Positions 6,884 through 62,247 are shown, counted from the stretch's first letter. The stretch is 64,000 nt of DNA from an uncultured bacterium (GCA_963701085.1 OY969561.1:929858-993857), one strand, 5' to 3'. The notes: a model not told the origin generated them from the letters alone. Translations and numbers: made by a program.

Positions 6884-6891
6884 CAAATAAT

Positions 6892-15382: not shown

Positions 15383-15530
15383 TATTCCCTACGTAATACA
15401 ATAGAATCTTAAAGGTATCAAAAAAAGCGCTATCTAAGCAAATAAATACCATCATTTATTGTTGACAAAAACTACACTCATGGTACCTTATCAATGTACT
15501 CTTACATTTTTGTAAAAGTCAGTTCTACAA

Positions 15531-15605
15531 GCGGGAATAGCTTAGCGGTAGAGCGTTGCCTTGCCAAGGCAAAGGTCGCGGGTTCAAATCCCGTTTCCCG
15601 CTCCA
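15531..15605 (+). tRNA. tRNA-Gly (anticodon GCC), CCA encoded
   Basis: Hand-folded cloverleaf: acceptor GCGGGAA/TTCCCGC, D arm GCTT-AGCGGTA-GAGC, anticodon stem TTGCC/GGCAA with loop TTGCCAA, variable AGGTC, T arm GCGGG-TTCAAAT-CCCGT, discriminator T, CCA. Confidence 0.9.
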
Positions 15606-15648
15606 AAATTTTATCCTTTTTTTTATCTATCCACACAAGGTTACCTTC

Positions 15649-18743: not shown

Positions 18744-19517
18744 ATGATACTCAACAAAAAGTTTTTTACTCCATTAGTTATCGCATTAACAATAGTATCT
18801 AGTATCACTCCTCATACGTTTCACCTTGATCAATTTGATCATCTATCAGCTGCAGTGTTACCGACATTCACTCATCGCAATATAAAATGGGCGATTCTGA
18901 GTAGAGAAGGTTATGGTATCACCAAAAAGCATACGTATGACTCTTTTAGCGGTGGCAAAGATAAAGGTGAAACACATCCAATACAAACGGCTGCGCATGA
19001 GTTTCTCCAAGAAGCAATTTTAGAGCACGTACTCAACTGGAATCTTGAAGATGTAGAAAAATTTATTGATCCAGAAAATGAATACACATGGGTTGTTATA
19101 GCCTATGAAAAAGATACAGATCTTAATAATCCAAAAAATAGAGCTGTTCGCAACGTTACCTACATCGTCAATTTTAATAAATACAAAACCAAGCTCTTTA
19201 AACAATTTTATGCTGCTCGTGAGCAAGAAATGGCACGCTATGAAGCTGCAGGCATCCCTGGAAAACATCGCACCACCACAGAAAAAGATCGCCTTGCTAA
19301 AGTACGCTGGAGAGATCTTGGAAATGCAATTCTTAATCAAGAAAATAAAAATGACCCTGTAACAGTATCGGCCTATGTACTCGATCCTAAAACACAAAAA
19401 TTTAATAAAGAAATTATTACATTACGACCAATTTTAGTCATGACATTACGTCCGCTCTTCCTTGGCTCCGAATATGAGCACGGAGAGAATGAAAAAATAA
19501 AATATTATGATGAATAA
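18744..19517 (+). CDS. secreted Nudix-box-like protein (paralogue 2)
   Basis: Colinear with 17871-18722 (FSGGKDKGETHPIQTAAHEFLQEAIL; RNVTYIVNF; TTEKD; TLRP). The box Arg is replaced by His. Confidence 0.5.
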   Translation: MILNKKFFTPLVIALTIVSSITPHTFHLDQFDHLSAAVLPTFTHRNIKWAILSREGYGITKKHTYDSFSGGKDKGETHPIQTAAHEFLQEAILEHVLNWNLEDVEKFIDPENEYTWVVIAYEKDTDLNNPKNRAVRNVTYIVNFNKYKTKLFKQFYAAREQEMARYEAAGIPGKHRTTTEKDRLAKVRWRDLGNAILNQENKNDPVTVSAYVLDPKTQKFNKEIITLRPILVMTLRPLFLGSEYEHGENEKIKYYDE

Positions 19518-19581
19518 AAAAATCCACCCCTTTGATTTTTTTCAAAGAGGCGGACAATTTAATTTAAAACTAATGAATTGC

Positions 19582-20263
19582 TTACGTGTAAATTACACGA
19601 ACTTCAACACGACGGTTTGGTGCACGATGTTCACGTGATCCGTTAACCACTTTACCATTGATCAGCACTGGGCATTCTTGGCCACGACCAACAACTTTAA
19701 TAGCACTTCTATCAACACCAGCTGCTACAAAAAGATCTGCCACAACTTTTGCACGTTTTTCTGACAATGCCAAGTTATATGCAGGCGTACCTTCTTGACA
19801 AGCATGACCTTCAATTACCACGGTTGGTTGTGCTGCTCTGCCAGCTTCTGCTACCAACTGTTTTACTTGGTCAATATCATAGCTTAATGATTCTTTTTGA
19901 TCTGCTCTTACGCCATAGTGATTGAATGAGAAATAGAGTTTTTTGAATTCATCATCTGTTTGAGCATCTATCCATGAAAATTCTTCATTTTCCTCAATAG
20001 TCATCAGATCTTCATCCTCGTCTTCATCTTCCTCGTGCATAGGAAGATCTTCGTCTTCATCCAAATCAAAACTTGCAAGATCTTCTTCCGTCAACTTCGT
20101 CCATGTCGAGGTCATCTTCATCAAACTCTTCAACATCAACATCGATATCCATGTATTTTTCAACAGCATTTTTTCTTACTGATTGCTTAGATGATTCTTG
20201 TTTTTTACCACAACCAGGTAAACTTACCACCAAAGCGAGGACTAAAAGAGACAATTTCTTCAT
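19582..20263 (-). pseudogene. pal: OmpA-domain peptidoglycan-associated lipoprotein (Pal-like), one frame change as sequenced
   Basis: Lipobox LPGC (20066-20263 fragment), acidic D/E linker, OmpA_C core ...NLALSEKRAKVVADLF...NRRVEVRV. One extra G near 20085-20095 (GACGGAAG) separates the two fragments. Confidence 0.75.
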
Positions 20264-21952: not shown

Positions 21953-22003
21953 TAAACTAGTATCATTATATGCGCTCCCAAAGTCGTGAAAATCTTAATC
22001 TTT

Positions 22004-22148
22004 CCTGCGCTCGCCCTGAACTTGTTGAAGGGTCTCTTTGAGCGCTCGAGGATATCATTTATTCCCCAATTTCCACTTCGTTCCAATTGGGGTCCCCAGT
22101 CGAAAGGAAGTGAAGATGGGGTTAAACAAGCTCAGGACGAGCGCGGAG
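22004..22148. repeat. palindromic repeat RE-B with an inserted internal module
   Basis: Left arm CCTGCGCTCGCCCTGAACTTGTTGAAGGG (22004-22032), right arm CAAGCTCAGGACGAGCGCGG (22127-22146). The internal GGTCCCCAGTCGAAAGGAAGTGAAGATGGGGTTA recurs at 43236-43268. Confidence 0.7.
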
Positions 22149-22188: not shown

Positions 22189-23705
22189 ATGGCTGAACAT
22201 ACTACCTCTATACTCGATAAATACCCTGCTTATGAAACAACCATCGGCATTGAAGTTCACGTACAACTCATGACGAACACAAAAATATTTTGCACATGCC
22301 AAAACACCGTAGCAAAAGATCCCAATTCACACATATGCCAGATTTGTGCTGGATATCCCGGCGCAATGCCAATGCTCAATAAAAAAGTGGTTGATTTTGC
22401 AATTTTAGCAGGACTTGGAACCAACTGCACCATCAACCAACAATCAACCTTTGATCGTAAACATTATTTTTATCCTGATTTACCAAAAAACTTCCAAATC
22501 ACGCAACAAGCTGAACCAATTTGTACCGATGGCTATGTGCCAATTAGACTGGAAGATGGCAGCATAAAAAAAATTAATTTAATTCGCATTCATATCGAAG
22601 AAGATGCGGGTAAAAATATTCACTCAAGCTATAGCAACGAAAGCTTTGTTGATTTAAACCGTGCCGGCACACCGCTGTTGGAAATTGTCAGTCACCCTGA
22701 TATTTCATCAACGTATGAAGTTCGCACGTACTTAAAAACATTGCGCTCAATTGTGCAATATTTGGGCATCTGCACGGGTAATATGGATGAGGGTTCATTC
22801 CGTGCGGATACCAATATCTCCGTGCGCAAAAAAGGACAAAAAGAGTTGGGCACCAAATGTGAACTCAAAAACATCAACTCATTCAAATTTATTTCCGATG
22901 CAACGGAACATGAATTGGAACGTCAAATTAAAATTCTTGAAGCTGGCGGAAAAGTACGCTCAGAAACGCGCCTCTGGGATTCAAAAGAAAAAACTACTAT
23001 CATGATGCGCTCAAAAGAAGAAACTGCGGATTATCGTTTTTTCCAGGAGCCCGATTTACCAATTATTTTTATTGATGATGCACGCCTTGAAAAGGCGAAA
23101 TAAAATATGCCAGAGCTTCCACTCGCCAAATTTGAACGCTTTACCAAAGAACTTGGCCTCAGTGAATACGAAGCGGATATTTTAATAGAAGATATTGATC
23201 TTGCAAACTATTTTGATGCAGCAAAAAAATATACCGCGAGCAAAAATCTTATTCATTGGATTTTACGTGATTTGATGGGTTACTTCAAAGAACAAAAAAT
23301 CTCATTATCAGAATGTAAAGTAACGCCAGAACGTCTTGGCAAAATAGTTGATTTGATTGATCAGGTGTTATCAACAGCCCTACCGCAAAAGAAGTTCTTG
23401 TTTTTGTTGCACAAGAAAATAAAGATCCGATGATTATTATTGAAGAAAAAGGCCTCAAGCAAATTGGTTCTGTTGATGAGCTTGAAGCTATGGTCAAAGA
23501 AATTATTGCGGCAAATCCTGGTCAAACGGCAGAATATCGCTCAGGAAAAGAAAAATTATTTGGTTTCTTTGTTGGGCAAATGATGCAGAAGACAAAAGGC
23601 AAAGGCAACCCGCAACTTATTAATGATCTTGATCAAGAAGCATTTGAATACCCCGCGCTCGTCCTGAACTTGTTGAAGGATGTCTTCGAGCGCAATAAAT
23701 TATAA
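22189..23705 (+). pseudogene. gatB: Asp/Glu-tRNA amidotransferase subunit B, one in-frame TAA plus at least one frame change as sequenced
   Basis: GatB N-terminal core (YETTIGIEVHVQL, CQICAGYPGAMP, RIHIEEDAGK, NRAGTPLLEIV). TAA at 23101-23103 is in frame with 23107-23433 (..LEKAK*NMPELPLAKFERF). A missing G at about 23368 (GATCAGGTG) restores ..LIDQGVINSPTAKEVLVFVAQENKDPMIIIEEKGL.. into 23430-23705. Confidence 0.85.
23653..23692. repeat. half copy of RE-B forming the last codons of gatB
   Basis: CCGCGCTCGTCCTGAACTTGTTGAAGGATGTCTTCGAGCGC, translated as ..YPALVLNLLKDVFERNKL* in the gatB frame as sequenced. Confidence 0.6.
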
Positions 23706-27783: not shown

Positions 27784-27840
27784 TAATAATTCTTTCTATG
27801 AATAATCTATATTTATAATCTATCCCTAAACTAATTTTTT

Positions 27841-27921
27841 CCTGCGCTCGCCCTGAACGTGTTGAAGGGTTTTCTTCGAGCGCTCGAGGATATTCTTCAA
27901 CAAGTTCAGAACGAGCGCGGG
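27841..27921. repeat. palindromic repeat RE-B, full copy
   Basis: CCTGCGCTCGCCCTGAACGTGTTGAAGGG...CTTCAACAAGTTCAGAACGAGCGCGGG. Lies 40 nt 3' of the glycosylase stop. Confidence 0.75.
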
Positions 27922-27960
27922 AGACCAAAACGTTTTTACAACTCTAGAAATAAACTCTAT

Positions 27961-40551: not shown

Positions 40552-40755
40552 TTGCTCTTCATTTTTTAAACAAATCAACACAATACTAAAAATTAAATTT
40601 TAAATAGCAGATTTCAATAGTCTCAAATATTCTTTAGAACTTTCATACACCATCTCTGAAATAAAATGCAGAAATGGTGTATTGTTATTTTTATATGCTT
40701 TTTTGACCTACTTCAAAAAAACAATTACCATTAAAATAAAGAATAAAGCGCTTAA

Positions 40756-40840
40756 CCCTTCAACAAGTTCAGGGTGAGCGCAACAAAGAACTGAATTTGT
40801 GTTTACTACTGATCCTGTCGAAGTATCAGAGTGAGCACAA
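40756..40840. repeat. RE-B half copy followed by a degenerate RE-A-like arm
   Basis: CCCTTCAACAAGTTCAGGGTGAGCGC (40756-40781), then ATCCTGTCGAAGTATCAGAGTGAGCAC (about 40812-40838). Confidence 0.5.
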
Positions 40841-50448: not shown

Positions 50449-51066
50449 CTAAAACAGTGACTCTTCAGCATTAAACTTAAGCCAAAAGAGCAATTTTCCT
50501 ATATAATTTTTTAACTCTTTTGATATCTCTAACGCAAAATATGCATAACAGATGGGATATATTTCCTTTATGATGGATGGTGCGCATTCTTTAAATTTTG
50601 TAAAAAATACCACTTCCCTGTCTTGTGCTGTTGGCTTAAAATCATAGCTCAATAATGTTTGTATACACTCTTTTTTTACTGCAAAGGGTGCCGTTGCCAT
50701 TGTTATTATACCCAAAGCAGAACATTCTTTTATTCGTTCATTACAATAAAGTTGTATATAAAATTCCCCTTTCTGCATAAGCCCTCTCTCAAAATCATCA
50801 TAAGTTTTTGCAGTATAAATAGAATACAAAAAAAGAGATGCTGCTGGAGACCATCCTCTGACAACATGCCCATTATGACGCTCATATAGCTCATTTTTTA
50901 TTGTTAATATAACATTTTCGCATTTTAATTTTTTAACGAACAAAGACTCAGAAATTTGTTTTAAGTCGGATTTTTTCTTCAGCACTACCATTTCCATACA
51001 TCCTGTTATAGTGGAAAATAAAAAGAATAGTAACACCATCAAAAAATGAGTTTTTTTATGTATCAT
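50449..51066 (-). CDS. secreted hypothetical protein
   Basis: Leader ..FSTITGCME. No motif recognised. Confidence 0.5.
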   Translation of the reverse strand: MIHKKTHFLMVLLFFLFSTITGCMEMVVLKKKSDLKQISESLFVKKLKCENVILTIKNELYERHNGHVVRGWSPAASLFLYSIYTAKTYDDFERGLMQKGEFYIQLYCNERIKECSALGIITMATAPFAVKKECIQTLLSYDFKPTAQDREVVFFTKFKECAPSIIKEIYPICYAYFALEISKELKNYIGKLLFWLKFNAEESLF

Positions 51067-51158: not shown

Positions 51159-52073
51159 ATGCTCCGTAAACATACCATCAATAAAAAATTTTTCCTCATA
51201 ATAATAACTACACTTTTTTTCACCAACATAATCGCCAAAAATTTACCTATCGTGCTTGTTCATGGAATATTTTCGGATGAATATACCATGGTTCCTGCAG
51301 AAAAACATATCCAAGAATATCTTCCTGATGTATACGTTAAAAATATCAGGCTTGGTGAAGGAAGAATAACATCACTCTTTAACATGCATGATCAAGTTGA
51401 ATGGCTCAAACAAGAAATGGAAGCTGATGAACAACTGCAAGATGGTTGCATAATAGTTGCACATTCTCAAGGCGGTCTTGTTGCCCGTTACTTTATTGAA
51501 AAATACAACAACCCGCGTGTGTATATCTATATTGCATGGGGAACTCCTCAAGCAGGAATATTTGGAGCACCAGACAAAATTGATACGTATATTCCATGGT
51601 TAAAAATATTACAACAAATTTCTTATAAATTTGCATACTCCTCATTAATGCAACGACTTATCAGCTTTGCCGGCTACTGGAAACATCCTTTGCATTATGA
51701 AAAATATTTACAAGGCTGCACCTTCTTACCCTTTGTAAACAATGAAATAGATCATGCGGATGCCGCATTATTTAAAGAGAACATCTGCAATCTTGCATGC
51801 ATGGTACTTGTGCTATCAACACAAGATGAAGTTGTTGTTCCTGTTTCATCATGTCATTTTGGATTTCATCCAATAGGATTCCCACAAGAAATTGAAGATC
51901 TCTTTGATTCTCAATGGTACAATGATGATGCCCTGGGACTCAAAACACTTGCTGAAAGTGGTCGATTACACCTCAAATTTGCTCACTGTCCTCATTCAGA
52001 ATTACAATCAGACGAGTACAACTTTGTAGAAAACACATTGCCTTATTTAATATATGAGGTGCCAGTAACATAA
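51159..52073 (+). CDS. secreted palmitoyl-protein-thioesterase-like alpha/beta hydrolase
   Basis: Signal peptide. LPIVLVHGIFSD, nucleophile elbow AHSQGG, GTPQAGIFG, C-terminal WYNDDALGLKTLAESGRLHLKFAHCPH. Order and spacing recall eukaryotic PPT1 (..WHG..., FSQGG, GGQHQGV, ..D.LGLK.....G.L......H). Confidence 0.6.
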   Translation: MLRKHTINKKFFLIIITTLFFTNIIAKNLPIVLVHGIFSDEYTMVPAEKHIQEYLPDVYVKNIRLGEGRITSLFNMHDQVEWLKQEMEADEQLQDGCIIVAHSQGGLVARYFIEKYNNPRVYIYIAWGTPQAGIFGAPDKIDTYIPWLKILQQISYKFAYSSLMQRLISFAGYWKHPLHYEKYLQGCTFLPFVNNEIDHADAALFKENICNLACMVLVLSTQDEVVVPVSSCHFGFHPIGFPQEIEDLFDSQWYNDDALGLKTLAESGRLHLKFAHCPHSELQSDEYNFVENTLPYLIYEVPVT

Positions 52074-52097
52074 ATATAGTTTAATTCATAAAGATTT

Positions 52098-52173
52098 TCT
52101 GCGCTCGTCCTGAACTTGTTGAAGGATGTCCTCGAGCGCTCGAAGACATCCTTCAACAAGTTCAGGACGAGCG
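52098..52173. repeat. palindromic repeat RE-B, near-perfect 76-bp palindrome
   Basis: GCGCTCGTCCTGAACTTGTTGAAGGATGTC - CTCGAGCGCTCGAA - GACATCCTTCAACAAGTTCAGGACGAGCGC (30-bp perfect arms), 25 nt after the stop at 52073. Confidence 0.85.
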
Positions 52174-52223
52174 CGATAAGATATTTTAAAAAAAATTTAA
52201 TGAATATTTCTATAGGAATTACT

Positions 52224-52973
52224 ATGCCCTACCTCTATGTAGCCAACTGGAAAATGAATCTCTCTTTTACTCAAAGCATCAACTTCTGCAAAAATAATCT
52301 TGATGCATTACAACAATTATCAAGTGACACCACTGATATTGTGCTCTGCCCTTCTTTTATTGCACTTGCACCAATTGCTGAAATTTTTAAAAATCATTCT
52401 ATTGCCATTGGCGCACAAGATTGTTCAGAACATGAATCTGGAGCCTATACGGGCGAAGTTTCTGCTGTATCACTTGCAGAAATTGGTATCAAATATTGCA
52501 TAGTTGGCCACAGCGAACGACGCATGTACCATCATGAAACGACTGAAAAAATTGTTAAAAAAATAAAACTTTTGTATGCAGACACTATTATACCCATTAT
52601 CTGTATTGGTGAAGCACAAGAATATTTTGAATATAAAAAAACATATACCATACTAACTGAGCAACTAGAACCAATACTTACTACAATAGCTCAGCAACAG
52701 GAACACTCAAAACATCTTATTATCGCCTATGAACCCATCTGGTCAATTGGCACTGGTATTATTCCAACGCCACAACAACTTACTGCTGTATGTGCATGGA
52801 TTACGGAGCACATAAAACTGCACCTACCTGACCATACCATGCAACTTCTGTATGGGGGCAGCGTTAATCAAAACAATATCGCAACATTAAAAAAAATACC
52901 GCCAATCAATGGTTTTTTGATTGGCGGTGCAAGTACTGATTTTGAGCAGTTTAAAAAAATAATTACCTTATAA
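52224..52973 (+). CDS. tpiA: triosephosphate isomerase
   Basis: ANWKMN, GHSERR, YEPIWSIGTG, YGGSV. The ORF-track start 52116 lies inside the RE-B palindrome, so ATG 52224 (MPYLYVANWKMN) is preferred. Confidence 0.9.
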   Translation: MPYLYVANWKMNLSFTQSINFCKNNLDALQQLSSDTTDIVLCPSFIALAPIAEIFKNHSIAIGAQDCSEHESGAYTGEVSAVSLAEIGIKYCIVGHSERRMYHHETTEKIVKKIKLLYADTIIPIICIGEAQEYFEYKKTYTILTEQLEPILTTIAQQQEHSKHLIIAYEPIWSIGTGIIPTPQQLTAVCAWITEHIKLHLPDHTMQLLYGGSVNQNNIATLKKIPPINGFLIGGASTDFEQFKKIITL

Positions 52974-54062
52974 ATCTTTTTTTATTAATTGACCAATACG
53001 ATTACCAATAATTCTCTCAAGATTCTTTCGTGGAAAACCTTCAATAGCTTTAAACGCTTTTGAATCTGATAAATTAACCAATTCAGCAACCCTTATGTAA
53101 CTATTATCAAAAGCTTTTTGGCAAAGGTATGATGCTACTTCTGGTCTTTTGAATAACACTATCGCTTTACGATTATGAGCAACGTCTATCGGAAAAAATT
53201 CTGAATCAATAGGCATATAAGAATTAGTTACCATAGCACAATAATTATCATGCTTATCACTAACTCTATACCTCTCTTCAAATATGCAAGAATAACCTCC
53301 TAGTAAAGCATTATTCTTATGTTCATAATCAACATAGTTATGCCCATTAACCCATTCTATACTTTCAATTTGTAGAGAATTGATTATCTCCCCTGTTTTC
53401 ATATCCCATATTGAATGAATATTATTATCATCAGTTGCTCGCAAATATTTACCATTAGCAGACATACCTAAAGAAGATGGTTCTATATTTCCATGAGGAC
53501 CATATAAAACAGTAAAATGTATATCCGATAACAACGTTGGCATAATAGCTGTTAATTTCTTATTAATGTCCTTACCAAAAAATAATTTAGAAGCACCATT
53601 AGAAGCAATTCTTTGTGCGCCATTGTCATCACTATCAACATGCAACTCATCATCATACAGCTTATCGATAGTAAGACCTGTGATATCGTCTAATTCCTCA
53701 GTCTTTTTATACACCAAAGCCTGCATTAAATAATTCACGTACCAATGCTGCGCAACAAGCTTTTGCAATACACTCTTTTTATCCATATCTTTTGTAATAT
53801 AGGACTCTATCTTATTCATCTCATCTGTAGCTTTTTGATACGTTAACAATTTATTTTTATACCAACTTACACATACACCAATCAATTTCCTAAAACAGAC
53901 ATCCTCATTAATTCCTAAATGATCTCTATCAATTATATCACGAATATCCGCCGCATATATATCAGAATTAAGCTTGTTAACATCTTCATATTTCATTGCA
54001 AACAAACAAAAAGAGTTAAGCATTACAATATACAAAAAAGAACGTTGTAGTCTTACCATCAA
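52968..54062 (-). CDS. secreted hypothetical protein (364 aa)
   Basis: Leader ..NSFCLFAMK. Stop overlaps the tpiA stop by 6 nt (convergent). No motif recognised. Confidence 0.55.
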   Translation of the reverse strand: MMVRLQRSFLYIVMLNSFCLFAMKYEDVNKLNSDIYAADIRDIIDRDHLGINEDVCFRKLIGVCVSWYKNKLLTYQKATDEMNKIESYITKDMDKKSVLQKLVAQHWYVNYLMQALVYKKTEELDDITGLTIDKLYDDELHVDSDDNGAQRIASNGASKLFFGKDINKKLTAIMPTLLSDIHFTVLYGPHGNIEPSSLGMSANGKYLRATDDNNIHSIWDMKTGEIINSLQIESIEWVNGHNYVDYEHKNNALLGGYSCIFEERYRVSDKHDNYCAMVTNSYMPIDSEFFPIDVAHNRKAIVLFKRPEVASYLCQKAFDNSYIRVAELVNLSDSKAFKAIEGFPRKNLERIIGNRIGQLIKKDL

Positions 54063-54086
54063 AATATCCTTGAAAAAATTAATAAG

Positions 54087-54899
54087 TTAATCCACTTTTT
54101 CTTTTCCAACATCAACAATACTACTTTCCATTTCTGTCAATGAGATAAAATCCTTTGCTCTAAACCCATGTCGCTGATCTTCTTCTTCATCTGTTTCTCT
54201 TAAATAATCATTAATTTTTGAGCTCAAACCAAGATAACAACCCAACGGTATTAAAAGTGGAATAGGTATACATTCACTGGGAGGATTCAACATAAACCAA
54301 AGATAACATTGTAAAAAACAGCAACTATACATTCCGCAACATGCCACATTATGTCTTACATGGTCTTTATTATCCCATAAAGCATTCATGAAAACATCTT
54401 TCATATCCGATGGTTGTCCATAACATACATTGCGCGTCATACTTGTACCATATTTTTCAGCAATTTTTTGTCTTACCTTCAGCGGCAAACCTATAACACG
54501 TTCTGCCATTTTATGTGCAAAATATCTATCTCCCCCTTCTATTCTCAATTTTTCACTATTTTTTACCGTTTTCAATACATACCATAATGTTTGTTTATTC
54601 TCTTCATTTAAAAACGAAATATCACAAACACTCTCAAAAATTTTACTATATTTTGTTGTTATTTTTTGTTCAGATATTTTTACATTATTATTGTTTTTTT
54701 CAGACAAAAAATAGGGATATGCTCGGTCATCCTTTTTACCAAAACAACAGAGACTTTTTTCATCTCTTCTCTTATATTCCCAATCTTGCTCTATCTGTCC
54801 AACTTGTTCCATAGCCTGCAGAGAAAAAGAATAGCTTAACAACATTACATTGAACGTAAAAAGATATAAAAAAGATTGCTTAATACATTTCACCATCAA
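54087..54899 (-). CDS. family D membrane-anchored secreted protein (distant member)
   Basis: Leader ..YSFSLQAME. DWEY...YPYF, LWYVLKTV, IEGGDRYFAHKMAERVIGLPLKVRQKIAEKYG are colinear with the two following paralogues. C-terminal TM region. Confidence 0.55.
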   Translation of the reverse strand: MMVKCIKQSFLYLFTFNVMLLSYSFSLQAMEQVGQIEQDWEYKRRDEKSLCCFGKKDDRAYPYFLSEKNNNNVKISEQKITTKYSKIFESVCDISFLNEENKQTLWYVLKTVKNSEKLRIEGGDRYFAHKMAERVIGLPLKVRQKIAEKYGTSMTRNVCYGQPSDMKDVFMNALWDNKDHVRHNVACCGMYSCCFLQCYLWFMLNPPSECIPIPLLIPLGCYLGLSSKINDYLRETDEEEDQRHGFRAKDFISLTEMESSIVDVGKEKVD

Positions 54900-54977
54900 A
54901 AACTCCTTTGGAAAAAATTAAAATGTTATCATTTTATAGCATAGGTATTGGAAAAAGTCATCGTTAAAAACACAAAA

Positions 54978-54996
54978 ATCCAACAGATTGTTGGAT
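54978..54996 (-). terminator. hairpin terminator after 55039-55944
   Basis: ATCCAACAGATTGTTGGAT palindrome. On the minus strand it is followed by TTTTGTGTTTTT. Confidence 0.45.
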
Positions 54997-55038
54997 TCTT
55001 AACCATGCTCTCAATGGACTTTTTTTTATCAAATACTT

Positions 55039-55944
55039 CTATTTTTGAACAATCTCATATTCCATTTCTTGCAACAAAGGAATTTTCACTAACTCAGTTC
55101 GATATTTTTTGTCTTCAGGTGTTTCATATAACCAATAAAGAACACTTTTTTTCAGACCAAAATAAAACAATATAGTTGTCACCACCATAGTTGTCACCTC
55201 TGAAAAATCTGGTACTGGCCCACCACCTAAAATCTCCCATAAAATAGCTTGAGGTGGAATTGAAAGAAGAGATGCCATGCTTGCCGAGGAATATGCAAAA
55301 AAATTCTTAGCCTCTTCATCATCCAAGCTCCACCTAGCCCCGCATATTGGTTGATTATGTAGACTACTTTCCATTGTTTCACCATACTTTTGAACAATTT
55401 TTTTTCTTATTGATAAAGGCAAATTCAAAATATTTTGAGACATTTTTTGTGAGAAATCTTTATCTAATCCTTCTATTATGATCCGCTCTCTACCTTCTAC
55501 ATCATGCAACACATACCATAATCCTTGTTTCTGTTCTTTTTTTAAATACAAAATATCAAATGTAGTAAGATTAAAAACTTGTTGGCTTTCCTGTATTAAT
55601 AGTTCATCAGGCGAAATCATTTCTGCATAACCTGCATAACAATACTCTAATATTTTATTTGTTACATCGCGTGGAATGCCTACATCTTGCATTGTTTTTG
55701 CCCAAAGCAATTCATCACAAAAAGAACGCTTTAATTGATCCCTATCTTTTTTGGGTATAAAATATGGATATTGAGGCCTATTTCCTCCAGAAATGATTTT
55801 ATCCAAACAACCTGTACGATATTCCCAATCCCCATAAACTTCCATATCCTGCATTTCTTTTGGATCCCTCGCCCTTTTCATCGCTTGTAAAGAAATGGAA
55901 ATAGTCACCAAGCCTATTATTAAAAAATTAACATGATGCATCAT
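55039..55944 (-). CDS. family D membrane-anchored secreted protein
   Basis: Leader MMHHVNFLIIGLVTISISLQAMK. GDWEYRTG, YPYFIPKKDRDQ, GLWYVLHDV, IIEGLDKDFSQKMSQNILNLPLSIRKKIVQKYG. C-terminal YWLYETPEDKKYRTELVKIPLLQEMEYEIVQK. Confidence 0.6.
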   Translation of the reverse strand: MMHHVNFLIIGLVTISISLQAMKRARDPKEMQDMEVYGDWEYRTGCLDKIISGGNRPQYPYFIPKKDRDQLKRSFCDELLWAKTMQDVGIPRDVTNKILEYCYAGYAEMISPDELLIQESQQVFNLTTFDILYLKKEQKQGLWYVLHDVEGRERIIIEGLDKDFSQKMSQNILNLPLSIRKKIVQKYGETMESSLHNQPICGARWSLDDEEAKNFFAYSSASMASLLSIPPQAILWEILGGGPVPDFSEVTTMVVTTILFYFGLKKSVLYWLYETPEDKKYRTELVKIPLLQEMEYEIVQK

Positions 55945-56018
55945 AAAAAACCTTACATCCTAAACTGTTGCATATAATGTAAAATGTTCCCAATGGACTT
56001 TTTTTTTATCAAATACTT

Positions 56019-56900
56019 CTATTTTTGAACAATCTCACATTCCATTTCTTGCAACAAAGGAATTTTCACTAAATTAGTTCGATATCTTTTTTCTTCAGGT
56101 GTTTCATATAACCAATACAGAATACTTTTGTTCAGGCAACAATAAAACAATATAATTGCAGAACAACGTTGTTCTGCCCCAAAACCTAAAGCATCCCATA
56201 AACAACTTTGAAGTGGAATTGAAAAAAAAGATACCGCTTTTGCCAAGCAAGATGCAAAAGAAGCCTTATTTTCTTCATCATCCAAGCACCCCCTAGCCCC
56301 GAATCTTGGCGTATTATGTAGACTACTCTCCATTGTTTTACCATACTTATGAACAATTTTTTTTCTTATTGATAAAGGCAAACTCAAAATATTTTGAGAC
56401 ATTTTTTGTGAAAAATCTTTATCTAATCCTTCTATTGTAATCTGATTTCTATCCCCTACATCATGCAACACATACCATAATGCTTGTTTCTGCTCTTTTT
56501 TTAAACACAAAACATCAAGTGTAGTAAGATTAAAAACTTGTTGGCTTTTCTGTATTAATGGTTCATTAGACAAAATCATTTCTACATAACAATACTCTAG
56601 TATTTTATTTGTTACATCGCGTGGAATACCTACATCTTGCATTTTTTTTGCCAAAAGCAATTCATTGCAAAAAGAACGCTTTGATTGATCCCTATCTTTT
56701 TCGGGTACAAAATATGGATATCGAGGCCTATTTCTTCCAACAGTAAATTGATCCAAAACACCTGTATGATATTCCCAATCCCCATAAGATAGTCTTCTTG
56801 CTTCTATAGCCAGCATTTCTTCTCTCGTTCTTTTCATCGCTTGCAAAGAAGTGGAAATAGTCACTAAGCCTATTATTAAAAAATTAACATGTTGCATCAT
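56019..56900 (-). CDS. family D membrane-anchored secreted protein (recent duplicate of 55039-55944)
   Basis: Same architecture. By analogy with its twin the start is MMQHVNFLIIG (56900), not the ORF-track start at 56927. Confidence 0.6.
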   Translation of the reverse strand: MMQHVNFLIIGLVTISTSLQAMKRTREEMLAIEARRLSYGDWEYHTGVLDQFTVGRNRPRYPYFVPEKDRDQSKRSFCNELLLAKKMQDVGIPRDVTNKILEYCYVEMILSNEPLIQKSQQVFNLTTLDVLCLKKEQKQALWYVLHDVGDRNQITIEGLDKDFSQKMSQNILSLPLSIRKKIVHKYGKTMESSLHNTPRFGARGCLDDEENKASFASCLAKAVSFFSIPLQSCLWDALGFGAEQRCSAIILFYCCLNKSILYWLYETPEEKRYRTNLVKIPLLQEMECEIVQK

Positions 56901-56957
56901 AAAGAACCTCAAAAATATAGTAACCATTCTATTAATATCACGAATTATATCATATTT

Positions 56958-57049
56958 TAGTAAACATTAAAAAATTACACATCAATGGCTTTTTAATTGG
57001 CAGTGCCAGTACTAATTTTGAGAGCTTTGCGGAAATTATCACACAATAA
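56958..57049 (+). pseudogene. relic 3' end of tpiA
   Basis: 56978-57049 reads HINGFLIGSASTNFESFAEIITQ* vs the tpiA end PINGFLIGGASTDFEQFKKIITL* (17 of 23 identical). Nucleotide similarity extends back to about 56958 (AACATTAAAAAATTACACATCAATGG vs AACATTAAAAAAAATACCGCCAATCAATGG). Confidence 0.7.
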
Positions 57050-57290
57050 TCCAACAGCCTGTTGAATTATTAAACATTCTCCCAATCGTTTTTTTTAAGC
57101 ATATTTTATGCAAAAAGTCTCACAAACTGTGAGACTTTTAAACATGCTGTTAATCGCTACTTTTGATAATATTTATATATAGAGTCCCACAAGCTGTGGG
57201 ACTCTTAAATATGCTTCCAATCATTATTTTAAACATATTTATTCAATTATCCCACAGCTTGTAGGACAAATAAATATTCTCCCAATCGTT
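57050..57290 (+). repeat. four tandem units of about 66 bp, each a hairpin plus a conserved tail
   Basis: Unit starts are about 57050, 57117, 57182 and 57249. Hairpins are TCCAACAGCCTGTTGA, GTCTCACAAACTGTGAGAC, AGTCCCACAAGCTGTGGGACT, ATCCCACAGCTTGTAGGAC. Tails are TTAAACATTCTCCCAATCG, TTAAACATGCTGTTAATCG, TTAAATATGCTTCCAATCA, TAAATATTCTCCCAATCG. Related single copies at 54978-55020 and about 55985-56000. Confidence 0.7.
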
Positions 57291-57468
57291 ATTGACATAT
57301 GCTATGATAATAAAAAAATTTCATTCTAAGGACACCGCTAATAATCACCAAAAAAGAAACCTGCACCAGCAAAAAAACCAACCAAAAAAACTAAAAAACC
57401 CTAATTTTATAAAAATTTTAAACATGCTATACTCACACTAATCACTACAATAATAAGAAGGAAAATAT

Positions 57469-57792
57469 ATGTTATACGGACTCTTACTAACACTGTACCT
57501 CACTAATTGCTTTTTTCTCGTCCTCATTATTCTCATGCAAAAAGGAAAAAGTGGCTTAGGCTTGGGCGGCCTTGGTGGCGGTGCTCAAATGCTTTTTGGT
57601 GGTAGCGGCGGACAAGATCTTTTTCAAAAAATTACCTGGGTGCTTGGTACAATTTTTATATCTGGTGCAATGTTACTTTCTCTCATGAAATCATCAGAAC
57701 ATAAAAAATTCAGATATCTTGCTTCTAACAAAACAATAACTCAGCAAGTTGCTCAACAAAATACGCCTACATCAACAGAAGAGTCTGAATAA
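57469..57792 (+). CDS. secG: preprotein translocase subunit SecG
   Basis: Two TM segments flanking a Gly-rich loop (LMQKGKSGLGLGGLGGGAQMLFGGSGGQDLF), the typical SecG signature. Confidence 0.85.
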   Translation: MLYGLLLTLYLTNCFFLVLIILMQKGKSGLGLGGLGGGAQMLFGGSGGQDLFQKITWVLGTIFISGAMLLSLMKSSEHKKFRYLASNKTITQQVAQQNTPTSTEESE

Positions 57793-57830
57793 AAAACTAC
57801 AATCTTTGTTAATGAAAAAAAAGGTGTCGA

Positions 57831-58610
57831 GTGATAATTCACTTTATTAATTTTTTGGGTAGATTCACCTTGGACATATGTGCTTCAACGGGTCAATTTA
57901 CCCTTTTTCTTGTGGAAGCAGTAAAAACATCTGTTACCTCAAAACTCAAGGTTTCCAAAACATTTGCCCAAATGAATCGTATTGGTGTTGAGTCTCTCAG
58001 CATTGTCCTTTTGACCGGTTTATTCACCGGGATGGTTCTTGCTCTCCAAACATACATTGGCTTTCAGCGTGTTGGTGGAGAGCAGTTTATTGGCGCAATC
58101 GTAGCGCTGGGACTTATTCGCGAACTTGGGCCAGTTTTAACCGCTCTGATGGTAACAGGCCGTGCAGGATCAGCTATTACCGCTGAAATTGGCACCATGA
58201 TAATTACTGAACAAGTTGATGCATTAACAACACTGCGCATTAATGTGTTTCAATATTTAGTTGTACCACGCATCATTGCAAGCACATTTATTTTGCCGTT
58301 TCTAACACTTTTTTCTATGTTTTTTGGCATCATAGGCGGCTACATAGTATGCGTGCATGTATTGGAATTAAGCCCAGAAGATTATGAAAGTAGCATTCGC
58401 AACTATGTTGAATTGGCCGATATAAAAGGTGGTCTTAAAAAAGCCGCTGTATTTGGTTTAATTCTTTCATGGGTTGGCACCTACAAAGGAATGTATACCC
58501 ATGGTGGTGCGCGTGGCGTTGGTATTGCAACCACACAAAGCGTTGTTGCTAGTTCAATATTAATTTTAATCACCAACTACTTCTTAACCAAACTCCTTGA
58601 ACATCTCTAA
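57831..58610 (+). CDS. mlaE: MlaE-family ABC transporter permease
   Basis: GVESLSIVLLTGLFTGMVLALQ, RELGPVLTALMVTGRAGSAITAEIGTM.ITEQVDAL. GTG start as given by the ORF track. Confidence 0.85.
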   Translation: MIIHFINFLGRFTLDICASTGQFTLFLVEAVKTSVTSKLKVSKTFAQMNRIGVESLSIVLLTGLFTGMVLALQTYIGFQRVGGEQFIGAIVALGLIRELGPVLTALMVTGRAGSAITAEIGTMIITEQVDALTTLRINVFQYLVVPRIIASTFILPFLTLFSMFFGIIGGYIVCVHVLELSPEDYESSIRNYVELADIKGGLKKAAVFGLILSWVGTYKGMYTHGGARGVGIATTQSVVASSILILITNYFLTKLLEHL

Positions 58611-58624: not shown

Positions 58625-59420
58625 ATGAAAAAAGAGAACTCCAGCAAAACCAAAATTAAAATTATCGATTTACAAAAAGAATTTGAGGGCCATTGGGTTA
58701 CTCGAGGAGTCAATCTCGATATCCCTGAAGGATTAATGACGGTGATCATTGGTCGATCAGGCGAAGGTAAATCAGTATTACTCAAGCAAGTTATTGGGCT
58801 CATTAAGCCAACATCAGGAACTATTATTGTTGATGGCATGGATATCACCAAACTGTCTGGTGATGAATTAAATGAATGCTACAAAAAATTTGGCTATGTA
58901 TTCCAGTTTGCAGCACTTCTTGATTCACTTCAATGTTTTTGAAAATATTGGCATAACGCTTATTGAACAAGGCATATCACATGCGCAAATTTTGCCTATT
59001 GTTAAAGAAAAATTAAAATTAGTACAATTATCAGAAGACACCTTAGAAAAATATCCCTCAGAACTATCTGGTGGTATGAGAAAACGTGTTGGATTAGCGC
59101 GCACACTAGTCGCTAATCCTGAAATTATTTTATACGACGAACCTACAACCGGCCTTGACCCTATCACTTCTCGCGTTATTCACGAACTCATGTTTGATAT
59201 GCAAAAACGTCTCAAAATAACCTCTGTTATTATTTCTCATGATGTGGAAACATTTAAATATGCAGATAAAGTTGCGCTGCTGCATGATGGAGAAATTAGA
59301 TATTTTGGTGATGCAAAAACAATATGGGAATCAGATAATCCATATATCTATCAATTTATCCGTGGATTAACTGAGGGTCCCATTACTAAAGAAATTACTT
59401 ATTTTAAAGATAAAGAGTAG
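58625..59420 (+). pseudogene. mlaF: MlaF-family ABC transporter ATP-binding protein, one frame change as sequenced
   Basis: Walker A GRSGEGKS (58625-58942). [23 protein letters not shown] (58872-59420). The junction ..[18 protein letters not shown] is restored by removing one base near 58930. Confidence 0.85.
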
Positions 59421-59443
59421 CCGATATACCATTTTTCTTTAAA

Positions 59444-60379
59444 TTACTGTCTAATTTTACCACCATGCTTTTCAAACAAACTAATGATGGCAGTAAGTGT
59501 GTCTTTTTCATAAGACATTACGTGATCACGATCTAATCTTTTGCATGCTGAACTAAGAGGAGTATCTCCATTCTCATTTGTCGCATTAATTAATTCAGGA
59601 GCAGCTTTAAGTAATAACTTACCAATTCTTACATAATCAACACTGCTTACTGAATAGCTCCATCCACAACAAACAAGCTTATGCAATACACAATCCCCAG
59701 TTAGAGTTTTTCTTTTTTTTGCATCAACATTGTGAGTCAGATAAAACTCTATCAATTCGGGCGAACAATGATGTAAGATAGTGTACCATAAAACATTTGG
59801 CTCATGATAGCCTTCTGCATTCACATCAACACGATCAATAAACATTTCTAATATATCAACATTTTTTATAACAAACCAATCTGGATCTTCATATAAACCT
59901 TGCTGATTTGGATTAGCATTATTCTCAAATAACGCAGCAATCATCTCTTTATCTTTTCGATATATTGCTCGCTGAAGTAAAGAATCCCTGCTGCATACAG
60001 CATTATCAGCACCTGCATACACTAATAAGAATGCCGCACGGCGTTTATTCCAATACGTTATATCATTCATACTTTGTAACAATTTTTTCATAACTTTATT
60101 TTTTTCTGCAATATTGTAGTTTTTACAGAATTTACCGACCATAGCAGGTGATATCAGTTCATTAAAATGCTTGCAGGTAGTGCTTAACGCTAAAGTAGTT
60201 TTAACAGTATCTTCTAAGAATTTTCCATTACAGATAATTGGTATTACCATCTCATGAGGCAAGTCTGGCAATGTAAGTGTCCTTTCCATGCCAGATATAT
60301 GCATAGAAGTCATTAAAAAAGTCATTGCTAATAATGCAGTAACAGTAATAGTCTTGCTCGTCATGTAAAAATCTTTCAT
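59444..60379 (-). CDS. secreted F-box-like plus ankyrin-repeat protein
   Basis: Leader ..TSMHISGME. LTLPDLPHEMVIPII....LALSTTCKHFNELI fits the F-box pattern (LP.E....I......L.L..V.K.w..L). ANK-like LVYAGADN, LFENNANPNQ, TPLSSACK. Confidence 0.6.
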   Translation of the reverse strand: MKDFYMTSKTITVTALLAMTFLMTSMHISGMERTLTLPDLPHEMVIPIICNGKFLEDTVKTTLALSTTCKHFNELISPAMVGKFCKNYNIAEKNKVMKKLLQSMNDITYWNKRRAAFLLVYAGADNAVCSRDSLLQRAIYRKDKEMIAALFENNANPNQQGLYEDPDWFVIKNVDILEMFIDRVDVNAEGYHEPNVLWYTILHHCSPELIEFYLTHNVDAKKRKTLTGDCVLHKLVCCGWSYSVSSVDYVRIGKLLLKAAPELINATNENGDTPLSSACKRLDRDHVMSYEKDTLTAIISLFEKHGGKIRQ

Positions 60380-60460
60380 TAATTATGATACAAATATTAT
60401 GTGGATTAACTGAAAGCTCATTACTACAGAAATTTCTTATTTTAGAGATAAAAAATAGTT

Positions 60461-60982
60461 TTACTTTTGAAAATCTTTGTATAACATACTCGGCTGGATG
60501 CCACGATTATTTTGGTATTTATTGCTGGAATATGTTACATAATCACCTTCAATGGTGTGATAAAAAATTTGGCATATTTCAACGCCAGCATAAATACGCA
60601 CTGGTCTTACGCAGAATATTTCTAGTGTCCAATAACCGCGAAACCCAACATCACCAAAACCAGCAGTAACATGAATAAAGAGACCCAAGCGGCCAATTGA
60701 CGAACGTCCCTCAATCATAGGAACTAATGTATTTGTTTTGGTGTATTCAACAGTTCTACCCAAATAAAGTTGGCCAGCTTCTAATAACAATCCTTCTTCA
60801 GGAATAGTAATTGTCTTAATTTGATGCTCTTTTTTCATATCAAGATGTGGCTCATCATACACCAATAATTCATTATGCAAGCGTAAATTATAACTGTTTG
60901 GACCAAGCTGAGACAGATTAAATGGCTCTATAAAAAGTTCTTTTCCCAAGCGCCGTCTAATTTCATTTCCTGAAAGAATCAT
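60461..60982 (-). CDS. dcd: dCTP deaminase
   Basis: MILSGNEI.., GPNSYNLRL, GRSSIGRLGLFIH, GYWTLEI. AAGGAG 5 nt before ATG 60982 favours this start over the ORF-track start at 61003. Confidence 0.9.
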   Translation of the reverse strand: MILSGNEIRRRLGKELFIEPFNLSQLGPNSYNLRLHNELLVYDEPHLDMKKEHQIKTITIPEEGLLLEAGQLYLGRTVEYTKTNTLVPMIEGRSSIGRLGLFIHVTAGFGDVGFRGYWTLEIFCVRPVRIYAGVEICQIFYHTIEGDYVTYSSNKYQNNRGIQPSMLYKDFQK

Positions 60983-62064: not shown

Positions 62065-62070
62065 CTCTTT

Positions 62071-62138
62071 GCGCTCATCCTGAACTTGTTGAAGGATTAA
62101 GCGCGCTTTAATTCTTCAACAAGTTCAGAATGAGCGCG
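62071..62138. repeat. palindromic repeat RE-B, full copy
   Basis: GCGCTCATCCTGAACTTGTTGAAGGATT...AATTCTTCAACAAGTTCAGAATGAGCGC, 7 nt after the moxR stop. Confidence 0.8.
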
Positions 62139-62247
62139 GTAGGAATTTTTAATCTTAGTAAAAAATTCATCTGTTGGTATACTTGACAACGATAAGACAA
62201 GAGCGTTATTGTGAAAAAAGTAAAAAAAATAATGCAAGGAATTCTCA

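Follow-up and report, generated by a model that had tools for sequence, protein, structure and literature searches.

A displaced copy of the tpiA 3′ end in a probably old, variable tpiA-secG junction of a Babeliales bacterium

In a 64,000-nucleotide stretch of DNA (the window) from an uncultured bacterium, the genes tpiA and secG are separated by four minus-strand genes and a displaced copy, or relic, of the tpiA 3′ end. The source is a bacterium of the order Babeliales and is amoeba-parasite-like. The reading that we favor, at a probability of roughly 0.6, is that this junction is an old variable region rather than a fresh insertion, in which a small array of fast-evolving genes for membrane proteins grew in place and was partly deleted in some lineages, the genes having likely entered by copy-paste. 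The relic itself is genuine, though fairly ordinary as a trace of genome rearrangement, and the locus shows no new molecular machine. Members of Dependentiae/Babeliales parasitize protists and are uncultured or barely cultured, and we know of no established account of how they gain or lose such genes without obvious mobile elements. Chromulinavorax destructans, a cultured member, has signal sequences on about 44% of its predicted proteins, with ORFans overrepresented among these (PMC6561590). The features of the junction are as follows.

52224-52973, plus strand: tpiA, encoding triosephosphate isomerase (Pfam TIM, E = 2e-74; alignment with 13 relatives).
52889-52928, minus strand: intrinsic-terminator-like hairpin and T8 tract within the tpiA tail, about 40 nt 3′ of the g364 stop.
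52968-54062, minus strand: g364, a leader-bearing gene of a small, Babeliales-only family.
54087-54899, minus strand: g270, a distant paralogue (26-28% amino acid identity) of g301 and g302.
54970-55028, plus strand: hairpin unit u0, a fragment of a YhcG/DUF1016 gene (unit profile E = 8e-14).
55039-55944, minus strand: g301, positional orthologue of the single 30x gene in the related locus L058.
56019-56927, minus strand: g302, a tandem duplicate of g301, missing from L058.
56957-57049, plus strand: relic of the tpiA 3′ end (core 56978-57049; own TAA stop codon included), situated upstream of g302 at a distance of 30-120 nt.
57044-57298, plus strand: four tandem copies of a YhcG/DUF1016 hairpin fragment with a 65-68-nt period (source region RIQQAVGLDNMLPIV).
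57406-57792, plus strand: promoter-like box (TTTTAAACATGCTATACT; promoter scan) and secG (Pfam SecG).

The initial annotation described tpiA-secG synteny interrupted by a four-gene block, with the tpiA terminus duplicated and a relic left on the secG side, and this description holds, as do its coordinates: tpiA ends at 52973, secG (Pfam SecG) starts at 57469, and four minus-strand ORFs with hydrophobic N-terminal leaders occupy 52968-56927. The likely start of tpiA is 52224, where relatives begin (MPYLYVANWKMN); the listed ORF starts at 52116. The relic core is identical to tpiA positions 52902-52973 at 53 of 72 nt with no internal indels, and translates as HINGFLIGSASTNFESFAEIITQ followed by a stop. 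When two small indels are allowed the similarity reaches about 56957, the whole copy being 72-92 nt, and the insert is flanked by direct repeats (tail 52883-52973, relic 56957-57049), one of which completes tpiA. The relic is the single copy in the window, with a local alignment score of 39 against 19 for the next best on both strands. A blastn search with the last 100 nt of tpiA finds it at E = 4e-11, tblastn at E = 1e-6, and nhmmer with a profile of 14 tpiA tails at E = 6.2e-14 (50.8 bits); alignment and profile statistics thus exclude the possibility, raised at the outset, that the 72-bp similarity is non-significant.

No canonical in-frame start codon lies upstream of the relic, and for this reason it is regarded as non-coding. 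Its hairpin has decayed (-7.8 kcal/mol, z = 0.2), and on the minus strand a TGATATAAT motif (56952-56944) adjoins the relic. Its similarity to all living tails is about equal (41-49 of 66 positions, or 62-74%, against each functional tail). Of the 17 positions at which it departs from the current tail, 14 carry states found in other functional tails, often the deep-branching ones (H, GGC, TTA, SF[A/S]E), as an early split predicts, and three are unique. Being equidistant from living tails and carrying ancestral codon states, it looks like an old fossil of the tpiA end, left when an early insertion duplicated the terminus. Some points tell against this reading. That an old, non-coding sequence shows just three unique changes requires some constraint. 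A relic is kept in two of about 17 occupied tpiA loci, the window and L018, and both begin at one point of tpiA (46 and 48 in the tail profile); since they differ in sequence type, more than one event, or gene conversion, is needed. A promoter role might be inferred for this relic and for the one at mlaF described below; consensus scans gave no more matches than chance, with 11 near the former (54850-57500) against 13 expected from shuffles, and none near the latter (59300-60600) against eight expected. An Rfam scan of 52000-58000 (E <= 1) gave no match to the relic or the hairpin units. Two sub-threshold matches to miRNA families fell on a palindromic repeat at 52095-52181.

The stop codons of tpiA and g364 overlap in the palindrome TTATAA, and the live tpiA tail appears to double as an antisense terminator of the convergent g364. 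The putative terminator has 12 pairs (six GC) and a T8 tract, and is the sole terminator-like site in 52600-53200, with 0.3 expected by chance. Folding of the tail hairpin gives -18.7 kcal/mol (z = -3.5), and the hairpin is kept in most ingroup loci and missing from outgroups. The tail contains perfect 11-bp inverted arms with a 7-bp spacer; an integron or att-site reading of this inverted repeat was dropped in favor of an antisense terminator because the T8 tract trails the stem on the minus strand.

Pfam searches with the four array proteins gave no significant match and no integrase or transposase family, as the initial annotation had stated. Among 5.8e9 proteins g364 has 23 homologues, all unnamed and without Pfam domains. 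Its AF2 model (pLDDT 81) gave no fold match in a Foldseek search of the PDB (best E 0.09), with a faint WD40-blade likeness only; the g302 model (pLDDT 48) was unusable. The g270/30x family has 36 representatives among 1.84e9 proteins, and g270 carries a leader, a Cys-rich hydrophobic C-terminal region and an ...EME..IV tail. Both families are tiny and found solely in the tpiA neighborhood. The likely true start of g302 is at 56900 (MMQHVNF). The g301 and g302 segments (55005-55953 and 55984-56909) are adjacent head-to-tail and 83.5% identical at the nucleotide level, and g301 aligns collinearly with the L058 30x gene at 72.6% amino acid identity. A three-way comparison of these genes is a near-trichotomy (46/58/47 sites), leaving the duplication and the lineage split unordered. 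In-situ tandem duplication explains the growth of the array, not the position of the relic. Neither between g364 and g270, which are 24 nt apart, nor between g301 and g302 was a shared or tail-like element found. The GC content of the block is 30-33%, against 35-37% in neighboring genes, with no sharp break and with skew that tracks the coding strand.

In at least 17 outgroup Babeliales loci tpiA is followed directly by secG-mlaE-mlaF, and contigs of metagenome-assembled genomes labeled Acidobacteria also show tpiA-secG adjacency; this adjacency, found in every outgroup Babeliales locus, is the ancestral state. Across the clade the junction holds zero to four genes, drawn from the two array families or from other small Cys-rich genes (L025, L004), without mobility genes. 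Precomputed Pfam lists for the junction gene calls of L058, L059, L061-L064 and the P0007 contig contain no recombinase. The closest relative with the full locus is L058 (87% nucleotide identity over 52230-55988, three array genes), in which window positions 55989-57412 are missing and the flanks are collinear. Array orthologues in the same order are also present in L001 (three genes) and in L061 and L062 (two each), and none of these four relatives has a relic. Insertion of the four-gene block, as the initial annotation proposed, is not borne out as a single event, nor as a recent one: same-order orthologues occur in all four, gene number at the junction varies, g301 and g302 arose in situ, empty ingroup sites are at least partly secondary, and the relic is old. 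The same annotation had named relatives with the same four genes and no relic as a finding that would speak against it; such loci were nearly found, with the genes in the same order and no relic, and with two or three genes instead of four.

The gene order and divergence of the array fit vertical descent. The empty site that was expected, with tpiA directly before secG, is seen in the outgroups, whereas the empty ingroup sites look, at least in part, like secondary deletions. In the empty L016, the minus strand carries IEGFPQNNLEQLITEQ directly beside the tpiA stop (25.4 bits; the highest of 200 shuffles scored 22.3), and both L014 and L016 keep the antisense hairpin and T-run that outgroups lack; as a point against such deletions, L014/L060 and L023 hold no array remnant. 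Gains and losses are not rigorously countable, because the TpiA tree is weakly resolved. The locus with the closest TpiA (L065, 83%) shifts abruptly inside g364 to high-GC DNA coding for a type IV secretion system (T4SS); it is a probable chimeric contig, and the idea that these T4SS genes mark a conjugative element at tpiA was set aside.

Three features were absent from the initial annotation, namely the nuclease-gene remnants after the relic, the antisense terminator in the live tail and a second relic at mlaF. The hairpin fragments kept in the window match the unit profile at E = 1e-12 to 1e-14, and the stem is 93.8% paired with two covarying pairs. Tandem Repeats Finder did not detect these 65-68-nt units because the copies are too divergent. 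An intact nuclease gene is present in L003 (DUF1016_N and YhcG_C, Pfam E = 2e-67 and 2e-41), and L004 has a fragment from the N-terminal part (Pfam); the window has no intact YhcG/DUF1016 ORF, only fragments of about 50 nt (RVPQAVGLLNMLPII). The fifth unit, u0, lies with a partial tail end between g270 and g301, is preceded by ACACAA as at the end of the relic, is 81% identical to 57041-57097 and is kept in L058 and L059; on the minus strand (55001-54973) it is terminator-like for g301. The box ahead of secG is kept in all ingroup loci and has TG ahead of the -10.

The proposed search for relic gene ends beside other arrays yielded both a second case in the window, at mlaF (59362-60458), and copies of the uvrC tail in L017.

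59362-59420, plus strand: mlaF tail.
59444-60379, minus strand: inserted leader-bearing gene with ankyrin repeats.
60401-60458, plus strand: relic of the mlaF tail, abutting the dcd stop.

The mlaF relic is orthologous in L058 (95% identical, with a common 1-nt deletion), and the gene between tail and relic is just 75% identical at the nucleotide level between the two. On the 3′ side of the relic lie dcd in the window, APH in L058 and an amidohydrolase gene in L062. In L062 the mlaF stop has received a 91% identical nucleotide copy of a gene from 4.3 kb away, which brought with it about 18 nt of the dcd end from the source locus; this insert is flanked by a 74-nt, 96% identical duplication of the tail, with 2-3 nt of microhomology at the junctions. 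This fresh case of local copy-paste shows no recombinase gene, and no integrase is needed. In L017, 52-nt uvrC tail copies (2264-2315 and 3137-3188) lie between 873-bp tandem paralogues. The terminus duplications are 59-92 nt long.

A history consistent with these observations would begin early in the clade, when a leader-bearing gene may have landed in convergent orientation within the final 80-90 nt or so of tpiA. The terminus would have been duplicated, leaving tpiA intact and a displaced copy toward secG, adjacent to a YhcG/DUF1016 nuclease gene located at that time ahead of secG. The array would have evolved in place, with g270 and the 30x genes as old paralogues and g301/g302 as a later tandem duplication, while the nuclease gene degenerated until a hairpin-bearing fragment was left, and this was copied five times. 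Later, L058 would have lost g302, the relic and the units, L016 all but about 17 codons of g364, and L014/L060 and L023 would also have been emptied. The likely mechanism, extrapolated to tpiA from the mlaF case of L062, would be illegitimate copy-paste at microhomologies, or template switching, in which the target is duplicated and no dedicated recombinase is required. Recurrence at gene termini probably reflects a survival filter rather than a site preference: where convergent genes have no spare DNA between them, just those events that duplicate a gene end would persist.

Other explanations account for parts of these data. Unequal crossing-over could have duplicated the tpiA tail together with the adjacent convergent gene or genes, the distal gene copy being later deleted or replaced, and the uvrC array of L017 shows exactly such tail copies between paralogues; g301 and g302 are tandem duplicates, and a partial tail end (ACACAA) with a hairpin unit sits between g270 and g301. 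Such a duplication is nonetheless expected to leave the relic 3′ of the gene copy, whereas the relics seen here (tpiA in the window, mlaF in three genomes) are distal, 5′ of the last insert. The sequence beyond the relics is unrelated (nuclease remnants; APH, amidohydrolase, dcd), so an extra deletion would be needed each time, and the L062 copy did not come from a tandem neighbor; we judge this origin unlikely. Still less probable is site-specific integration at the tpiA 3′ end by a tyrosine or serine recombinase since lost or acting in trans, with the new terminus as attL and the relic as attR. Direct repeats and a reconstituted target are the classical mark of integrases that target tRNA genes and gene 3′ ends, and both are seen here; the inverted arms of the tail resemble a recombinase core site, and the common start of the window and L018 relics would also fit. 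The four block proteins and the junction Pfam lists of L058-L064 contain no recombinase domain, however, and the tail inverted repeat with its T8 is better read as an antisense terminator. The same architecture recurs at mlaF and uvrC with unrelated tails, so that several site specificities would be needed, and the L062 event copied a neighboring chromosomal gene along with a piece of dcd.

Recent lateral acquisition is likewise given little credence. It would have the lineage start out empty like L014 and receive the tail, g364, g270 and 30x from a donor like L001 or L019, with the relic as the native tail. The window and L014 do group in the TpiA tree (82% bootstrap), the relic and the L014 tail share the ending ...IITQ, and the window tpiA is 94% identical to L001 in the tail against 72% in the body, with an informative-site switch from L014-like to L001-like near 52890 (p = 0.002) that is confounded by general tail conservation. 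The same pattern appears with the empty L016 as comparator, and the L014 tail, rather than that of the window, is the odd one out. An imported tail was set aside because the tail is the best-conserved tpiA segment in every pairwise comparison, even with the empty L016 (89%). Nearer relatives (L058 and L065, TpiA 80-83%) already carry tpiA-g364, array proteins are just 35-50% identical to their L001 counterparts, the relic is no nearer to L014 than to the window tail or L023 (49/66 each), and L016 shows secondary loss and L014 a ghost terminator. A chance or low-complexity match, conceivable for a short segment in a genome of about 32% GC, has a negligible probability given the profile E value (6e-14), a score twice the next best in a 128 kb search space, and a preserved frame and stop codon.

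An old variable junction with array growth in place thus remains the preferred reading, and it makes the locus a concrete, datable case that combines an ancestral junction, a fossil gene end, local duplication and deletion, and a coding tail that apparently terminates its neighbor. Given that the pattern recurs at mlaF and uvrC and that L062 holds a fresh event, the process can be tested with more genomes. A wider proposal is tentative, and we would not expect it to hold in full: in Babeliales, and perhaps in other gene-dense intracellular bacteria, recombinase-free copy-paste would add effector-like genes at convergent junctions, duplicating the last 60-90 nt of a gene, and the ends would be reused. 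If so, the live tail would become the newcomer's antisense terminator, the displaced copy would serve as upstream control of the distal gene or be kept tail-like by gene conversion, and the two direct repeats would permit clean excision. Effector arrays would then have a self-contained and general way to grow and shrink.

Among known systems, an integron cassette array would have an IntI integrase, attI and an attC at each cassette boundary; the four block proteins include no integrase, and no shared element lies between g364 and g270 or between g301 and g302. As for transposons and IS elements, no transposase domain is present in the four proteins, and the duplications are 59-92 nt against the 2-15 bp expected. 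Integrative elements and islands at gene 3′ ends are similar in that a live terminus and a displaced copy flank the insert, the target stays intact and relatives vary in presence. They differ in that here there is no integrase or excisionase, the cargo is one to four small chromosomal-type genes, the tpiA block lacks a distinct composition, three unrelated gene ends (tpiA, mlaF, uvrC) are involved, and the fresh case is a neighbor-gene copy with microhomology. The minimal mobile elements of Neisseria (Saunders and Snyder 2002, cited in PMC1797815) are varied small gene sets between conserved flanks without mobility genes of their own, as at this junction, and are described as passing between genomes when transformation is followed by homologous recombination in the flanking genes. 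Most of the content here is instead orthologous and has come down vertically, with deletions, and the termini are duplicated. To our knowledge, duplicated gene ends have not been described for minimal mobile elements. The tandem effector arrays of intracellular bacteria share with this locus leader-bearing, fast-evolving ORFan or ankyrin genes in the reduced genome of a protist parasite, and a large secretome and ankyrin families are known from Dependentiae (PMC6561590); the families here differ in being tiny (23 homologues; 36 representatives) and confined to the tpiA neighborhood. FoSTeS/MMBIR-type template switching resembles the L062 event, in that a nearby segment was copied with a short target duplication and 2-3 nt of microhomology, a likeness that is drawn from the DNA sequence only.

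The DNA between tpiA and secG is an old insertion scar with gene-end duplication at a long-lived variable site, and this scar has some interesting secondary uses. The initial annotation had proposed that a block of four genes was inserted into, or recombined at, the end of tpiA. What it observed is confirmed, and its interpretation is supported in part: the insertion scar and its duplicated gene end stand, and a recent arrival of the block does not. The locus, in a window of about 32% GC, is organized as follows.

50449-51066, minus strand: lipoprotein-like gene
51159-52073, plus strand: palmitoyl-protein thioesterase gene (PPT)
52224-52973, plus strand: tpiA
52889-52928, minus strand: predicted antisense terminator in the tpiA coding tail (12-bp stem, T8)
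52968-54062, minus strand: g364, hydrophobic N-terminal leader
54087-54899, minus strand: g270, hydrophobic N-terminal leader
54970-55028: hairpin-bearing nuclease-gene fragment (fifth unit) between g270 and g301, preceded by ACACAA as at the end of the tpiA relic
55039-55944, minus strand: g301, hydrophobic N-terminal leader
56019-56927, minus strand: g302, hydrophobic N-terminal leader
57469-57792: secG, followed by mlaE and mlaF

Within the palindrome TTATAA, the tpiA and g364 stop codons overlap, and 541 nt of non-coding DNA lie between the array (g302) and secG. A nearly perfect palindromic repeat of about 75-80 nt, which resembles a MITE or REP element, is dispersed in the window (52095-52181, 21999-22059, 23652-23693, 27835-27923, 40739-40789 and 62069-62152), and its copy at 52101-52174 is 97% self-complementary. 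The copy between PPT and tpiA creates a spurious N-terminal extension of the tpiA ORF, and the peptide-like string of the repeat is also found in the related locus L021 (ORF 2431-2796).

The closest relatives of the window are metagenome-assembled genomes (MAGs) labelled Candidatus Babeliales. The interruption of tpiA-secG synteny noted in the initial annotation is real, as in every outgroup Babeliales locus fetched (L005, L006, L027-L037, L040 and L057) tpiA is followed by secG-mlaE-mlaF within 40-110 nt; the adjacency is also seen in loci of MAGs labelled Acidobacteria. Within the ingroup, defined by linkage of PPT and tpiA, the junction holds from zero to four minus-strand genes.

Minus-strand genes at the tpiA-secG junction of ingroup loci
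None: L014/L060, L016/L026, L023
One: L017, L021
At least one (contig ends): L018, L059
Two: L003, L004, L061-L064, contig carrying protein P0007
At least two (contig ends): L019
Three: L001, L002, L025, L058
Four: the window

The nearest relative having the whole locus is L058 (identity to the window of 80% for TpiA, 92% for PPT and 98% for MlaE), which is collinear with window positions 52230-55988 at 87% nucleotide identity. It carries orthologues of g364 (80% amino acid identity) and g270 (78.5%) and one gene of the g301/g302 type, directly followed by the secG promoter, and window positions 55989-57412 (g302, the relic and the repeats) have no counterpart there. Gene order as in the window is also found in L001, L061 and L062 at 35-57% amino acid identity. 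Since these four relatives keep orthologous genes in unchanged order, the four genes did not enter as a recent insertion. The g301 and g302 genes are tandem duplicates (83.5% nucleotide identity) that form a near-trichotomy with the corresponding L058 gene. In L002, L003 and L064, PPT is replaced upstream of tpiA by the closest g364 orthologue, and a second, more distant paralogue is found downstream, so array genes have switched sides of tpiA during the history of the clade. The locus with the closest TpiA (L065, 83%; 1-9990 in locus orientation) has a g364 gene cut off after about 295 codons, where the sequence changes abruptly to high-GC DNA encoding the T4SS proteins VirD4/TraG, VirB11, TrbI, CagX and LPD7; this switch is probably an assembly chimera and less probably a real foreign insertion.

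An empty junction in the ingroup carries a trace of the array. In L016/L026, the minus strand abutting the tpiA stop (L016 1559-1620) encodes IEGFPQNNLEQLITEQ, a C-terminal motif that the g364 family conserves; it represents about 17 codons of the g364 C-terminus and scores 25.4 bits, compared with a maximum of 22.3 in 200 shuffles. This remnant indicates deletion of the array there, and at least some of the ingroup empty sites are secondary deletions.

None of the four array proteins has a significant Pfam match. The predicted model of g364 is confident (pLDDT 81) and has no fold match in the PDB; that of g302 is unreliable. Both families are tiny and have been seen only around tpiA, with 23 homologues of g364 among 5.8e9 proteins and 36 members of the g270/g301/g302 family in a profile search of 1.84e9 cluster representatives. 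Members of the latter family have in common a leader with LQAM(E/K) at its end, a hydrophobic segment rich in Cys and an acidic motif conserved at the C-terminus, ...L(Q/T)EME(Y/C/S)(E/S)IV, within which a YxxI/V pattern might, speculatively, recall eukaryotic sorting signals. A large ORFan secretome has been described for the Dependentiae (PMC6561590), and the leaders and rapid divergence of the array proteins agree with it.

The 3′ end of tpiA in most ingroup members contains an A8 run followed by 11-bp inverted arms, which on the minus strand has the canonical shape of an intrinsic terminator (ACCGCCAATCAAAAAACCATTGATTGGCGGT then ATTTTTTTT). In the window, about 40 nt separate the g364 stop from the predicted terminator downstream, which is placed to terminate this convergent gene; it is the sole terminator-like site in 52600-53200 (0.3 expected by chance) and folds at -18.7 kcal/mol (z = -3.5). 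On the antisense strand, most ingroup tails fold at -17 to -23 kcal/mol and most outgroup tails at 0 to -11 kcal/mol; the outgroups do not combine an A-run with a strong inverted repeat. The empty loci L014/L060 and L016 retain the hairpin structure with no convergent gene to terminate. Such double service, as coding sequence and as the predicted antisense terminator, would also explain why every pairwise comparison shows higher nucleotide conservation in the tail than in any other part of tpiA (94% for the tail and 72% for the body between the window and L001).

The copy of the tpiA 3′ end beside the array is genuine, as the initial annotation had proposed. Its core (56978-57049) encodes HINGFLIGSASTNFESFAEIITQ* and matches the tpiA end at 53/72 nt with no internal indel, and the similarity extends back to about 56957 if two small indels are allowed. 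The local alignment scores 39, the second-best in the whole window on both strands being 19; E is 4e-11 in a blastn comparison with the final 100 nt of tpiA and 6.2e-14 with a profile made from 14 tpiA tails. Over 66 codon-aligned nt, the relic is about equally similar to each of 20 functional tpiA tails (41-49 identities), the L002 and L004 rows, which were out of register, being disregarded. Of the 17 sites that separate it from the live tail in the window, 14 carry, in the relic, a base also seen in another functional tail; only three changes are unique to it. The shared states (His for Pro, GGC, TTA and an SF(A/S)E motif) often match the deep-branching loci L017, L022, L023 and L025. Such a pattern would be expected if the relic had split early from the live tail within the clade and changed little since. 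The hairpin of the relic is degraded (-7.8 kcal/mol, z = 0.2). A second tpiA relic occurs in L018 (2084-2154, E = 2.8e-6), upstream of a single gene of the g301/g302 type; it starts at the same position of tpiA (profile position 48, compared with 46 for the window relic) and its hairpin is intact (-23.4 kcal/mol). Its sequence type differs from that of the window relic, so the account has to make room for a second event or for gene conversion.

From the stop codon of the relic onwards, four copies of a hairpin plus TTAAACATGCT...CCAATCGTT are spaced 65-68 nt apart (57044-57298). These units derive from a YhcG/DUF1016 PD-(D/E)XK nuclease gene, being pieces of its RIQQAVGLDNMLPIV-coding region, and the window holds five non-coding copies of about 50 nt each. 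The fifth, conserved in L058 and L059, looks on its minus strand (54973-55001) like a terminator of g301. Single copies are present in relatives.

L003 15168-15225
L004 12476-12531
L021 11770-11826
L058 6890-6947
L059 4988-5028

L003 has an intact YhcG/DUF1016 gene downstream of mlaF, L004 an N-terminal fragment immediately ahead of secG, and L021 an N-terminal scrap and one unit, likewise ahead of secG; nuclease fragments at the junction indicate that a nuclease gene was formerly located between tpiA and secG. Across ten copies, 93.8% of the stem is paired and two pairs covary. Where the copy is still part of an ORF, the covariation changes the encoded residues, which are Gln/Gly in L003 (intact gene) and Ser/Arg in L004 (gene fragment). 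The hairpin-bearing piece has been retained and multiplied, possibly for use as a terminator or insulator.

Duplicated gene ends recur at mlaF. A copy of the final 59 nt of mlaF (59362-59420) occurs at 60401-60458 (84.7% identity, one 1-nt deletion), adjoining the dcd stop and just past an inserted, leader-bearing ankyrin-repeat gene (59444-60379, minus strand). The orthologous relic in L058 is 95% identical and has the same deletion, whereas the inserted genes are only 75% (nucleotide) and 55% (amino acid) identical, so the relic region is conserved. The mlaF relic of L062 (74 nt) matches the live mlaF tail of that locus at 96% identity and carries the tail-specific codons of that lineage, which indicates a recent event or gene conversion. 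The inserted gene at the L062 mlaF stop (G1, 14779-15702) is a 91% nucleotide copy of G2 (19112-20143), which adjoins dcd 4.3 kb away. The event (14779-15804 and 19112-20174) also copied, at the end of the segment, some 18 nt from the 3′ terminus of dcd (TTATTCCTGAAAATCT); the mlaF tail copy adjoins them immediately, and 2-3 nt of microhomology are shared where the two meet. This case is the clearest, and judged from sequence it would be a fresh, local copy-paste event in which illegitimate recombination or template switching duplicated 74 nt of the target; no recombinase gene accompanies it.

The three kinds of relic have two features in common: the duplicated stretch runs precisely to the stop codon, and the inserted gene directly adjoins the live one. 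Convergent genes at these loci abut or overlap at their stop codons, and an imprecise insertion there would leave both neighbours intact only if the gene end were duplicated. We infer that a survival filter, rather than a site-specific enzyme, is the preferred reason for the gene-end pattern. An integrase acting at gene ends would have to account for three unrelated targets, and no recombinase was found. A rival explanation is tandem duplication with later loss of the distal copy, a mechanism that can be seen at work in L017 (1343-4847), where four paralogous genes (273-279 amino acids, ending ...VTL) stand in tandem on the minus strand after uvrC and a 52-nt copy of the uvrC 3′ end is present at two of three inter-paralogue junctions, because the duplication unit overlaps the uvrC tail. 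Apart from these uvrC tails, a systematic scan with the final 100 nt of each long ORF, covering the window and every locus above 6 kb, gave no other non-paralogous gene-end copies. A further rival, recent lateral replacement of the tpiA terminus, would fit a switch in informative sites at about 52890 (p = 0.002), but this signal is confounded by the general conservation of the tail.

The old scar with its duplicated gene end resembles the outcome of integrative elements that target gene ends, whose attL/attR repeats are comparable to the tail and relic seen here; the recombinase that defines such elements is, however, absent. Variable content between conserved flanks is shared with the minimal mobile elements of Neisseria (PMC1797815), yet the tpiA-secG junction differs from these in that its content is largely orthologous and duplicated termini are present.
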